This document shows, in pieces, positions 648 to 62,738 of a stretch of 64,000 nt of DNA. Source of the stretch: Octopus vulgaris. Lineage: Eukaryota. The stretch is from the NCBI GenBank assembly GCA_951406725.2, contig OX597816.1, forward strand, positions 28,830,001 through 28,894,000. Reading direction: 5' to 3'. The notes beneath the pieces are model-generated. The model had not been told where the DNA came from. It made no database searches and was given only the letters and a program-made list of their open reading frames with translations. The position numbers and the translations under genes were made by a program. Numbering within the stretch: the first letter of the stretch is position 1; the number at the start of each line of letters is the position of its first letter.

Positions 648-1100
648 TTGTGTCTGGAGAGAGTCATTCTGTTTCAATGCATTATTAATTGACACACTCA
701 CCAGTTCAGATTCCATTCATTTATTATTTTTTCCTAAAATTTTCATTACTTCTTGCAAACTCTTCAATAGATGTTGACTTGTCCCTTATCGGGGCTAGGT
801 GCTTATTTATTGGTTTGTTTGTGCGCATGTGTGTGCGTCAGTGCAAAAGTGCATACACATATGTATACGTGTATGCATACATGTATGTATGCGTGTGTGC
901 GTGTATGGATATGGATGTGTATGCGTGTGCATGTATCTATCTATGTATTCTGCATATTCATGTGTTTGTGTATGTTTCTCTCTTTCTACGTATGTGTGTT
1001 TGGTGTATTTGTATGCGTACCTCTGTTTCCTTGTTTGTGTGTATGTGCGTTTGCGCGCGTGTGTGCGGGTGTGTGTGCGTCGAATCGTATTACCTATGTA
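648..1100 (-). mobile_element. Non-autonomous PLE-like repeat (family H1) with degenerate minimal hammerhead at 734-770
   Basis: Homologous to 40385-40525, 52146-52350 and 53165-53600 (TCTGGRGAGAGTCAT...CCTAAAATTTTC...TCAATAG, then a TG/TA-rich body). Confidence 0.65.
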
Positions 1101-3805
1101 GCTATCTCTCTACTTAGCTATCATATACATTTACCTACCTACCTAGCTGCCTAACTATCTACCTACCTATCTACCTACCTATCTACCTACCTATCAACCT
1201 ACATACATACCTACATAGTTATATAGAGAGATACAAACAGACACACAGACACACACATATATATTCACGTACATAACAGCCAACTAACAAATCTACCTGC
1301 CGTATATAAACTGTGGGTATGGAGGTATCACAACATTCTATATGTGTTTTCTATTTAGTATGGGGGGGTGTGTTTTATTTATGAGGACGTACTCCTATAT
1401 TCTCCTATATTTTCTGTGTATATGTATGTATGCATGTATGTATGTATAGTAATTTCTGCTACTTAAATAGTACTATTGCAGAATTGTGCGGTATCGCATT
1501 GAGAATGTTAGAACAGATATAAATAAGGAAACTTAAGGTAGCATGGACCATGATTTCTTCTGAATGATTCCTTAGAAAGTTGCTTGTAATAAAATATTGA
1601 ATAAAAGCGAATTAGACTTGACTCTACGAAACAAGTTACTTCATAGTTTACTTGTTTGAGATTCAATACATCATTCTGAAATCAACTATTGATCGCAATG
1701 GGGCGGCAGTGTTCTATTTCGAGGTCTCCCCACTTCTTAACTGTGGAGTTGAAAATCGATGTCTGTCGACTAATACACGAGACCAGGTGAAGAACGTAGA
1801 ATTCCATATTATAAGGCTGTTCAGAAAGGTTTCTATGTAATCTCTTTACAAATCAATATGCATGAAGTGTCTTTGTAGATAGCAACGTTTCACATTACTG
1901 TGTAGCCTATCAGACTGAATAATTTGCAATGGCTTGAAACAGATCCAATGCTACATTTTTCTGTGCCATTTTCAATTGCCCAATAGAGAAAGTGTGTTGT
2001 TTAAATGTACAGAGAGAAAGAGAAAGAGAGAGAGGCACAAAGACACATATATGCATAAATATATAAATTGATACACTCAGATGTCAAACATTCAGAGAAA
2101 ATTTAATAAATATGGAAAATATTTTGCAGATCATCAGATTAGTATTAGTTTTTACACACACACACACACACACACACACACACACACACACACATGTATA
2201 TATAAACTAATACATGTATATATATATATACATACATGCACACATATATAGTATTATATATATATGCATGCATATTTCTGTAAATATATGTCTATATGAG
2301 TGTATATGTATATGAATATCTATTTATATATGTGCAAGAATCAGTAAGTTGTCCACTGTTAAATTCTTACCACAAAGCAAATTATGCCGTAGCGTTTCTA
2401 ATCATTGCCGTTAAGCTAGTGTCACTGACGTGCAAATCTTTACGTAGCCTTCACATACTTTCATATTCTATTTCTATGTGGAATACATGTAAATTATTCT
2501 TATATATCCATCATGTCTGCTAAAAGCGTTGAAAAATCTCAATAAAAACTCCTTCGATCTAATCGTCTCTTTTGTATTGTCTATATATATATTTTTTTTT
2601 TCTATTGTTTAATCATTCCGTTACCGATTATATTTACGTCTAGTTATAATGACTGCAATAAATAAGTATATCTTATATTTTGTCAAGAAAACGCTTTGGT
2701 TTTAGATAAATGCCTCTGTTGTATTGCAGAACCTATCGAGGAATGTCAACAATGATTAGAAACATATTAATTGTACTTTCCACAGAAGCGAAATATTACT
2801 ACATGTAAGAAAAAAATGTATTTCTCCAATTTTCTTCTTTCTCTGTATCATTTATCCTTTACAAACTTGGGCGACATCTTTCATTACGTTGGCATTCCAC
2901 AAAGCATTGATTTGAAGAATCTAATCGATTTTTCACTATTTTGACCTTCTTAAAAGTTCGTTGTGCTAAAAAGGATTTCATGCTTCTTCTAATATACATC
3001 CATTAACATCTGTAACTATTTCTATTGCCTTTTACTTTTTCATGTTTCTCTGGTCAGAAGCTAAAATTGGTTGCCAATCTTGAGAGGTTTCCATAGAGAA
3101 TTCAATCATAAACTGTAGATGATGCTATTCTTGGTTGCATCCTTTGATTACAAGAATGACTAAATCAGTTACTTCAGTTTCGTTTATATATTTTCTCTCA
3201 ATAATGTTCGCCGATTTACCGATTCTACGCACTAGTAATATTTCAGATATAATTAATTACTATCTGGAACTTCCACATCTTAACTTTCACTTGCTTCGGT
3301 CATTACACTGCAGCCATGCCGGGGCATCACCTCATTCATTCGGAATAGAATATTGGATACTTCATTCTGAATATAATACGATTCACAGTTTTCAGTTTCA
3401 AAAATTAATATGACATATTTTCAGAATGACACCCTTACAGAGATATCTTAATGATGGCGGATTGGTATGTGATACTATGGGTTGTTAGGTTAAATAGATT
3501 ACAACATGAATGTCACATTTTCTTGACACACACTTACTGACTTACACAAACTTATAGTTTCGAAAGCAGGCATGATTCTTCAATATTATACACTTTCAAT
3601 TAGATGTTCTCGGCGACGCGCTAGAATGATTTTCACCTGTTTAATGGTCGACCTCATGCGAAAAGTAGAGAACTTTATGGATACAATTTATGATTTCTGT
3701 TCAAATATGGTGTGCACTAATGTTTGCTAATTTTTATTCAATAAGGCTACATAATATTTACGCAAGATAGTGAATCATCAATGTGAATATATATATATAC
3801 ATACA

Positions 3806-3998
3806 TAGGGAGAGTTTACGAAAAGAAAACAAAAGACGAAGACAGGTGGTGTACAAAACAAACAGATGTATTTGTATAACGCTCAGGAATAGAAAAAAGT
3901 ATTTTACATTTCGAGCCTACGCTCTTCTACAGAAAGGGACACAGAAAAAAACAATGAGAGAAACAAGGAGAGAAAAAAATGTGTTTAGTGGCTAACGA
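3806..3998 (-). mobile_element. PLE pLTR-like repeat (family H2) in (TA)n, hammerhead-like motif at 3902-3936
   Basis: Homologous to 41082-41278; minus strand reads CTTT-CTGTAGA-A-GAGC(GTAG)GCTC-GAAA-TGTA-AAA. Confidence 0.65.
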
Positions 3999-61124: not shown

Positions 61125-62362
61125 CAGGGGTTGGACAAAATAATGGAAACACTCTAAAATTTTTAACAAATTTATTTTGATATGGGGTTGGACCGCCTTT
61201 GGCAGTAATTGCAGCTTGAATTCTCCGAGGTATGGGCTCGTACAACGTTTGAATTATTTCCAAGGGAATTTTTGTCCTTTCTTCAGCTAGAACACTCCAG
61301 TTCTTGTAGTGATGATGGTGGAGGATATCGACTACTTAGTTATTTTTCTAAAATGCACCATAAATGTTCAATAATACTGAGATATGGGGACTTTGGCAGC
61401 CAGATGAGATGTTCAGCTTCACTCGAATGTTCCTCGTACCATTCAGTAACAATTTATGCTCTGTCACTTGGTGAATTATCGCCCTGAAAGATTGCGTTTC
61501 CCTCCGGAATCAATTCCTCAAACGTAGGATAAATTTGATAGATAAAATGATTAAGTAGACTTGATTATTAATTCTGCCATAAAGGGAAACCACTGGGCCG
61601 GCAGATTTCCAAGGTATAGCCCCACAGATCAGTACAGATCCTACTCCATGTTTAACAGTTGGAAGAAGGCAGTCTGGGTTGATTCTTTTGGCTGCCTTCA
61701 CACGTATAGTCGGCCGGTAACAGAAATATGGCAAAGGATGAGAAAATAACATTCTTTCACTGCTCTAGGTACCAATTCTGTAGATTCGTACTCCATTCTA
61801 AACGCTTTGCAACGTTGGTGTTTGAAAATAGTTGCTTTCCGATTGCAGCTCGCCTGTGATATCCGGCTTTGTGCAGCTCCCGGCAAACTGTTTTTTTGTG
61901 GAAACTGGGTTCTCGAGGTGGTCATTAAGCTCTGCGGTAATTTTGGGAACTGTGCTTTTTGTGATACTTTGTAACAATACACGTAAGAATCTGATGGTCC
62001 CTATCTGAAAGTTTTGGTTTGCTTCCGGAGTTTTGTTTCGACAAGGAGGCTCTTCCCCCTTTCTCAAAGGCTGTCTTTACTTTCGAGATAGTACTTCTTG
62101 ATACAGCAAACATTTCGGCTGTTTTCGTTACGCTAGCGACTGACATATGAGCACCAACAATTTGACCTCTTTGAAAGTCCGGTAGATCGATCATTTTAAT
62201 GAATTACCTTTTTGTGATGATATCTGAAAAGAAAGAGCAATTTTAGCAAAACATTAAGGAACACTAATAATAAATTAAAAAAAACAAAAATAAACAAGCT
62301 TTTGACGGTTGTATAGATATTCCAAAATTATGATGCTATGATGCTAGGTGTTTCCATTATTT
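61125..62362 (-). mobile_element. Tc1-family DNA transposon, degenerate
   Basis: TIR CAGGGGTTGGACAAAATAATGGAAACAC (61125) and partial inverse GTGTTTCCATTATTT (62348-62362); LPDFQRGQIVG, PTVKHGVGSV, LSIIEHLW remnants. Confidence 0.93.
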
Positions 62363-62680
62363 ATGGTTAAATATGCATAAGATCGAGCGACATTGTGCAA
62401 CAGATATTCAACCAATATTTCCAAAATATACACAGCCGAATGTGAATACATATTTATCCATTGTACCCACGTGTATGTTACGAGCAGTACCGCAGAAAAC
62501 TGCAGTATTCGATCAGGGAGTAAATTATAATTTCAAATTAATAACAAAAGGGTAGAATTTATTAAATTAATTAATTGATAAATCAATTAATTAATAATTT
62601 TACCAAGTAGATCGGTTCGTTAAACTAACCTTTATAAGTAAAATTTACCCCGAGCACTTTCAAATTTTATATTGGAAATG

Positions 62681-62738
62681 CAACACGGATGAGGAAATGT
62701 AAGTAATTAAATACTTTCATCTCGAAACGCGTCTTTGG
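62681..62738 (+). ncRNA. Degenerate hammerhead motif
   Basis: CGGATGA-GGAAATG...CATCTC-GAAAC-GC-GTC; U4G change and weak stem I. Confidence 0.4.

Follow-up and report, generated by a model that had tools for sequence, protein, structure and literature searches.

A 64,000-nt stretch of the Octopus vulgaris genome (assembly GCA_951406725.2, contig OX597816.1, positions 28,830,001 to 28,894,000 of the forward strand; hereafter the window) contains copies of repeat families that carry a minimal type-I hammerhead ribozyme motif, and all four Watson-Crick pairs occur among these families as the majority pair at core positions 3 and 8. We consider it probable, at roughly 70%, that the repeats are 5'-truncated 3' ends of Penelope-like elements (PLEs) with minimal type-I hammerheads predicted to cut as dimers, and that the 3-8 pair was swapped in founder copies. 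The original prediction, made from the letters of the window, had listed about 10 such families with all four pairs, a fair estimate: nine families were counted, including the weak family L. The majority pair is the consensus C3-G8 in families E, F, G, K, and L, the accepted variant U3-A8 in B and C, G3-C8 in A, and A3-U8 in D. The observation thus holds at the family level, and the cited sites are confirmed to be decayed copies of dispersed repeat families.

Because three of the nine cited copies fail when they are judged alone, the genome was searched with each site; 40 candidates were scored per search, the best 30 or 20 were fetched, and the family majorities count these top-scoring copies only. 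All cited sites belong to dispersed families, each search yielding between 429 and 2,323 first-look candidates. Family A (~210-nt unit; stem I of 7 bp, an extra G, stem II of 5 bp, AAUAUU, U17) has G3-C8 in 29 of 30 copies. U3-A8 is found in 29 of 30 copies of family B (stems of 3 and 4 bp, AAUU, U17) and in as many of family C (stem II of 4 bp, AGCGCU, A17), and A3-U8 in 28 of 30 copies of family D (stem I of 4 bp, a 2-bp stem II capped by a 4-nt loop, stem III ACCGGU, a GUC site, C17). C3-G8 is the majority in E (19/20), F (20/20), and G (20/20); E and F have long, mismatch-closed stem II regions, and G has a stem I of 6 bp, stem III ACGCGU, and a GUC site. The type-I order of stem I, core, stem II, GAAA, stem III, NUH, and stem I' is present in the majorities of families A-H, and stem III is short and palindromic, with one imperfect position in F. 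The letters U4, G5, A6, A9, G12, A13, A14, and H17 and the pair A15.1-U16.1 are kept, a partly circular result, as the motif was used for site picking. G10.1-C11.1 is present in A, B, C, D, and G and in the related families H, I, and J described below; E has A-G there and F has U-U. Conservation was 0.978 in the core vs 0.931 in the flanks, a comparison confounded by top-hit selection that we do not use as evidence. An Rfam scan of the window returned 146 matches at E<=1, hammerhead absent among them, and the window copies do not match the Rfam hammerhead covariance model.

Pairing at positions 3 and 8 exceeds that of shuffled DNA at both scales at which it was counted. A relaxed type-I descriptor that leaves the two positions free gave nine hits in the window, six of them Watson-Crick, vs a mean of 4.56 hits and 1.15 Watson-Crick in 100 local dinucleotide shuffles, none of which reached six Watson-Crick hits. 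In an unselected sample of 120 evenly spaced 10-kb stretches (1.2 Mb; score cut >=10; 10 shuffles), 35 of 37 hits were Watson-Crick, compared with 5.4 hits and 1.3 Watson-Crick in shuffles. These 35 comprised 24 C-G (seven from one tandem array), six G-C, five U-A, and no A-U, and the non-Watson-Crick classes stood at shuffle level. When 266 hits from 1.98 Mb, again with positions 3 and 8 free, were grouped, 16 of the 18 multi-member clusters had a Watson-Crick majority; among singletons the proportion was 20 of 50. The other two multi-member clusters were excluded from the permutation as artefacts: cluster 12 (C-C) is a chance match that lies upstream of family H's real motif, and cluster 17 is a microsatellite. 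Of 22 hand-listed families or subfamilies, 20 were Watson-Crick, a result matched in 1 of 2,000,000 permutations (kinship ignored), and the remaining two entries were wobble-type.

Two quantitative expectations did not survive. The density of the window, supposed to be unusual, is near the genome average and not exceptional (3-5 Watson-Crick hits vs 2.1-2.5 per 64 kb in the genome sample under the same descriptor); core-spanning copies found by homology are about fourfold denser in the window (14 vs 68 in 1.2 Mb), a ratio for families that were chosen from the window. It had also been supposed that scans requiring CUGAnGA would miss most families. Such scans would miss four of the nine window families and 24 of the 68 sampled core-spanning copies, the other 44 belonging to C3-G8 families, which limits the observation in that these families still make up about two thirds of copies. 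Extrapolation from the 1.2-Mb sample gives roughly 65,000-80,000 intact-looking motifs in the genome.

Hammerhead copies in the window

The window has a GC content of 33% and abundant microsatellites, and sits on contig C3 of the 2.8-Gb assembly. It holds 15 core-bearing copies from nine families (family L, at 41207 on the minus strand, is weak), at least six of them visibly core-broken:

646-841, minus strand: family B 3' end (U3-A8 family), copy decayed; core UUGAAGA at 767-761.
28688-28813, minus strand: family A copy, G3-C8; core 28806-28800; stem I of 7 bp, an extra G, stem II of 5 bp, stem III AAUAUU, U17.
33402-33744, plus strand: family E copy, C3-G8; core 33521-33527; stem I of only 2 contiguous bp, stem II region of ~95 nt with a closing A-G mismatch, stem III ACGGCCGU.
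36680-36868, minus strand: family D copy, A3-U8; core 36791-36785.
36880-37084, plus strand: inverted partner copy of family D, A3-U8; core 36967-36973; stems decayed.
38630-38774, plus strand: family K copy (C3-G8 family), outside the cited set; decayed core CAGAUGA at 38685.
40387-40612, minus strand: decayed family B copy; core CUGAAAA at 40515; GAAA broken; inverted piece at 40524-40612.
41177-41214, minus strand: family L copy (C3-G8 family), matched weakly at E 3e-5; core CUGUAGA at 41207, decayed.
45462-45605, plus strand: family A copy, G3-C8; core 45470-45476.
49844-50078, plus strand: family F copy, C3-G8; core 49967-49973; stem I of 6 bp, long stem II with U-U closing; non-coding upstream sequence common to the family extends to about 48400.
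50312-50532, minus strand: family C copy; decayed core UUGCCAA at 50358.
51441-51726, plus strand: family C copy, U3-A8; core 51624-51630; stem II of 4 bp, stem III AGCGCU, A17.
52148-52265, minus strand: family B copy, U3-A8; core 52201-52195; stem I of 3 bp, stem III AAUU, U17.
53164-53356, minus strand: family B copy, U3-A8; core 53293-53287.
62643-62931, plus strand: family G copy (C3-G8 family); decayed core CGGAUGA at 62686.

All nine cores cited in the original prediction are present in the sequence. Its positions 33521, 49967, and 51624 (all plus strand) are core starts and the remaining ones are motif edges, whose true cores begin at 28806-, 45470+, 52201-, 53293-, 36791-, and 36967+; its outermost positions, 734 and 62738, point to two copies that have decayed (cores 767- and 62686+). 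The layout that it described as shared is found in family majorities, and copy by copy six of the nine cited sites pass the relaxed descriptor. The three that fail singly (33521, 49967, and 36967) do so because stem II is long and its closing pair mismatched, because stem I has 2 bp, or through decay, and the majority sequences of their families have the hammerhead layout. The strictest descriptor retains two of the nine (both G3-C8), plus the decayed copy at 767. Descriptor hits at 10963- and 10945- were set aside as another repeat with a long stem II region, and a hit at 26977+ as a singleton. Family K 3' tails that lack a hammerhead lie at 30026-30118 (an inverted pair) and 38486-38528.

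Pair exchanges between homologous families

To follow the pair across homologues, we used genome patterns that fix the surrounding motif. With A/G at position 3 and C/U at position 8, 1,826 matches were found vs 532 in the control, and the first 100 comprised 82 A-U, 6 G-C, 6 G-U, and 6 A-C (this and the following counts of first 100 rows were made by eye). Eight loci from this search gave the sister families I (A3-U8) and J (G3-C8), which can be aligned at 74-77% along as much as ~540 nt, with paired letters at 3-8 in all nine rows (five G-C, four A-U). With both positions wholly free, the pattern of the I/J clade gave 218 matches vs 0 in the control; the first 100 comprised 56 A-U, 36 G-C, one G-U, and seven mismatches, where ~49 Watson-Crick pairs would be expected if the positions were independent. 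Eleven of the G-C rows equal the A-U form except at positions 3 and 8. As the rows are copies of few source elements, the effective sample is small, and they come from the first contigs only. Stem III ACCGGU is common to D, I, J, and H. Requiring A3-U8 together with an 8-nt G/C stem III gave a null result (21 matches vs 23 in the control).

A second, retrozyme-like clade (loci L181, L163, and L048) gave 377 matches vs 0 in the control with both positions free, and every combination of C/U with G/A at 3-8 is amplified in it. The U-G form occurs in ~355-bp tandems and the C-A form at at least five separate loci; one array of this clade has a spacing of ~1,380 bp (C1:94322220-94326400). Since the U3-G8 and C3-A8 subfamilies are amplified, strict Watson-Crick pairing is not required, and any constraint at 3-8 is on pairing or geometry. 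The original prediction had read family-level compensatory swaps as a sign of selection on the active fold. Pairing at 3-8 is indeed far above chance and sister families differ by double changes, but the strictly Watson-Crick form of that claim was overstated, as was the word 'active' for a fold whose cleavage is predicted. Nor are the repeats unrelated, as had been assumed: the families are related, and about three changes could yield all four pairs.

Carrier elements and neighbouring repeats

The hammerhead lies 3' of an open reading frame (ORF) with reverse transcriptase (RT) and GIY-YIG endonuclease (EN) domains, or of its remnant, in families B, C, D, H, and I, the last two of them outside the window. 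The earlier assignment of the motifs to minimal type-I hammerheads of the Penelope type, in which stem III is palindromic, is supported. Family H, an apparently intact young relative of D outside the window, has a 784-aa RT-GIY-YIG ORF (RVT_1, E 3.5e-8; GIY-YIG, E 3.8e-4, just below the curated cut-off), preceded and overlapped by a 446-aa frame (e.g. G000:C3:156754740-156757091), and 8 of 10 loci have an identical U3-A8 hammerhead 3' of the ORF. At two loci (L333 and L340) hammerheads are present at both ends, 4.4 kb apart; inverted 5' pieces also occur in the family. The canonical PLE architecture, in the part of PMC8557442 that describes it, is the same as that of family H. Many identical EN copies of this family (L331-L340) were seen across the genome.

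Family D has RT and GIY-YIG remnants upstream, with a cysteine-rich linker. A profile of our own (a hidden Markov model, HMM, seeded with H and B) matched within 1.5 kb upstream at 11 of 28 loci of D and 3 of 28 of C. Of 20 loci taken from behind B-type EN matches, 12 carried the family B 3' end, about 0.6-0.7 kb on; Pfam gave no match for the B-type EN fragments, whose assignment rests on a visible motif and our own HMM. The EN remnant of family I is 51% identical to that of H. RT, a cysteine-rich linker, and GIY-YIG as the C-terminal domain, which define EN+ PLEs, are thus present in the H ORF and in the remnants of D, C, B, and I. The elements may be of the 'Neptune' type, a label taken from the linker as PMC8557442 describes it in part and not from a reference tree. 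Partial tandems, inverted 5'-truncated copies, and simple-repeat flanks also occur, including the inverted pairs at 36680-37084 and 40387-40612 in the window. Pseudo-long terminal repeat (pLTR) identity is shown for three families (B, C, and D) and is likely for the rest.

Family A looks non-autonomous. Its 3' end is constant and precedes (AT)n, its 5' end lies no more than about 25 nt from stem I, inverted pieces are common, and one tandem array was seen. The 5' ends cluster in a stretch of ~15 nt immediately upstream of stem I (L018:1495-1700 and others) and are not randomly truncated. At L341 (G000:C27:31279933-31282966), at least five family A units follow one another head to tail, with (AT)n spacers of varied length. 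A short circular monomer was considered for this family and rejected, as the head-to-tail pattern (linker <=30 nt) had two matches genome-wide, in one array.

Several other repeats lie in the window. C-terminal fragments of non-LTR retrotransposons, which we take to be R4/Dong-like, adjoin (TAA)n at 19362-20303 (-), 23266-24087 (+), 12913-13473 (-), and 60188-60655 (+), the first two with a zf-RVT match. A PIF1-like helicase remnant at 53707-54920 (+; E 1.7e-18) is probably a Helitron piece, and an ISXO2-like transposase fragment at 29704-30072 (+) is at the curated cut-off. A 322-bp inverted repeat (31613-32295; 99% complementary, 39-nt spacer) and a 36-bp minisatellite (21749-22269; 14.4 copies) are also present.

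Cleavage, competing explanations, and known systems

We propose that the element RNA would be cut when two copies pair via the palindromic stem III, and that selection would act on the few source elements making new copies, the genomic copies being passive and decaying. The pairs C-G and U-A could have interchanged via U-G or C-A states, which one clade carries in amplified form; a single purine/pyrimidine flip within the ACCGGU clade may have given A-U, followed by exchange between A-U and G-C, and by parsimony these steps would suffice for all four pairs. Minimal PLE hammerheads with the same layout show, in the part of PMC4209133 that reports their assays, no activity as monomers and weak activity as dimers; processing or circularising the element RNA has been proposed as their role (PMC4209133 and PMC6765202, each in part). 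In folding predictions, two family D monomers adopt a hammerhead dimer as their lowest-energy fold (-16.5 vs -8.4 kcal/mol), and stems I and III form between copies in dimers of J and H. The energies computed for designed dimers of H, B, C, and G are not used, their registers having been unoptimised or wrongly set. A bolder version, in which the genome preserves a full natural compensatory walk at 3-8 (C-G, U-G/C-A, U-A, A-U, G-C, the last two exchanged between near-identical sister families), all of whose forms cleave as dimers, including a ~40-nt A3-U8 form with a stem II of 2 bp, among the smallest natural hammerheads, with G3-C8 and A3-U8 undescribed in nature, is put forward tentatively, at somewhat below even odds.

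Several points weigh against PLE ends with dimer-cutting hammerheads. A search within 1.5 kb turned up no coding partner for families A (0/29), E, F, or G (0/19 each), and the 1.2-1.5 kb upstream of E and F are non-coding. Stem I is 2-3 bp in B, C, E, and H, stem II is 2 bp in D, and the minimum free energy dimers of A, B, C, and G differ from the hammerhead fold. In the retrozyme-like clade the first 100 matches comprised 59 U-G, 22 C-G, 12 U-A, and 7 C-A. The EN tree leaves 8 of 14 inner branches open, and the order of swaps is therefore a matter of inference. From the literature, and as far as the cited parts go, published minimal hammerheads of PLEs remain poor cleavers when dimeric (PMC4209133), rescue of the C3G/G8C double mutant is only partial (PMC8495972), and canonical hammerheads are lacking in Naiad PLEs, which spread nonetheless (PMC8557442). 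A pile-up of 5' ends at the predicted cut site found no support, with one of 18 hits starting there in family A and none of 13 in family B. Assembled contigs of four runs, which cannot show cleavage, had no pile-up of starts or ends against a family A copy and no alternative letter at >=10% in its core. A single family J copy (L364:1195-1205) ends exactly after the predicted cleavage site and is followed by another repeat.

It is unlikely, in our view, that the fold is kept as a structural signal for dimerisation or RT binding, with cleavage marginal or absent in the variant families. The very short stems, the amplified U-G and C-A cores, and the copies that end 40-200 nt downstream of the predicted cut instead of at it would fit such a signal, and PMC4209133, in the part cited, leaves non-cleavage functions open; however, G5, A6, A9, G12, A13, A14, and H17 are present in every family majority (letters that the descriptor required), and the active conformation is the only one in which the 3-8 pair forms (PMC3884650, in part, for C3-G8). 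We hold it to be quite unlikely that the motifs are non-functional passengers, fixed by drift in trans-mobilised sources, with the pairing pattern reflecting few lucky events. The small number of changes needed for four pairs, the C3-A8 mismatch subfamily at its separate loci, and the non-autonomous look of family A agree with passengers, but the permutation result (with relatedness ignored) and the wobble-type exceptions to it, the near-identical subfamily pair that differs only at 3 and 8 in 11 rows, and the complete U3-A8 motif in the intact autonomous family H do not. Chance matches in AT-rich repetitive DNA, to which the four to five hits of loose descriptors per shuffled window and the three cited copies that fail singly might point, are refuted by the 1.2-Mb shuffle comparison and the 218-vs-0 pattern search, and the family majorities and the position in PLE 3' ends speak against them too.

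The 3-8 pair has so far been known from one crystal form and laboratory rescue mutants, and amplified natural families with four pairs and wobble intermediates add evolutionary evidence that the active fold matters to PLEs, whose need for a ribozyme is called an open question in PMC8557442 (in part). Families I and J and the U-G, C-G, U-A, and C-A subfamilies offer matched natural pairs for assays. For annotation, descriptors fixed on CUGAnGA miss about one third of copies in this genome's sample, and Rfam missed every one.

No natural G3-C8 or A3-U8 hammerhead was found in the literature searched, a weak absence, as Lünse 2017 (RNA Biol 14:1499) may list them, and no cephalopod hammerhead survey was found there. 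The comparisons that follow rest on parts of the cited sources. The octopus families resemble the PLE pLTR hammerheads of Cervera and de la Peña (2014; PMC4209133) in their type-I form, palindromic stem III, short stem I, frequent extra base before G10.1, frequent U17, and many divergent families per genome with mostly solo or inverted copies. That some 3-8 variants were already known, as the original prediction allowed, is borne out for U3-A8, which is published (PMC3088659, PMC4209133), the latter reporting it in Schistosoma. The 56 representatives in Fig. S3 of PMC4209133 include two U-A rows, one U-G (Saccoglossus, given in the figure text), and zero G-C or A-U, whereas G3-C8 and A3-U8 are family-fixed here; stem II is 2 bp in family D and mostly 4-8 bp in that set. 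Perreault et al. (2011; PMC3088659) describe U3-A8 covariation, a stem II of 1-2 bp, and a U10.1-U11.1 mismatch among natural variants, and the sections cited name only U3-A8 at 3-8 and no purine-3/pyrimidine-8 pair. The variants of Lünse, Weinberg, and Breaker, as reported in PMC6765202, are PLE-associated, have a short stem III, and cleave as dimers. Non-LTR retrozymes (PMC7229834; bioRxiv 10.64898/2026.07.22.740005) are non-autonomous hammerhead repeats akin to PLE pLTRs; arrays elsewhere in the genome (L181, with 353-359-bp units, and L341, with family A units) fit them, but the window copies are solo or in inverted pairs and lack the tandem short units of retrozymes. The C3-G8 pair forms in the active conformation (PMC3884650), and the laboratory C3G/G8C mutant, which has the same swapped pair as family A, partly restores activity (PMC8495972, PMC3884650); here that pair is natural and amplified. 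Overall, our findings refine a known system and do not define a new one, with G3-C8 and A3-U8 as apparently new natural pairings within it.

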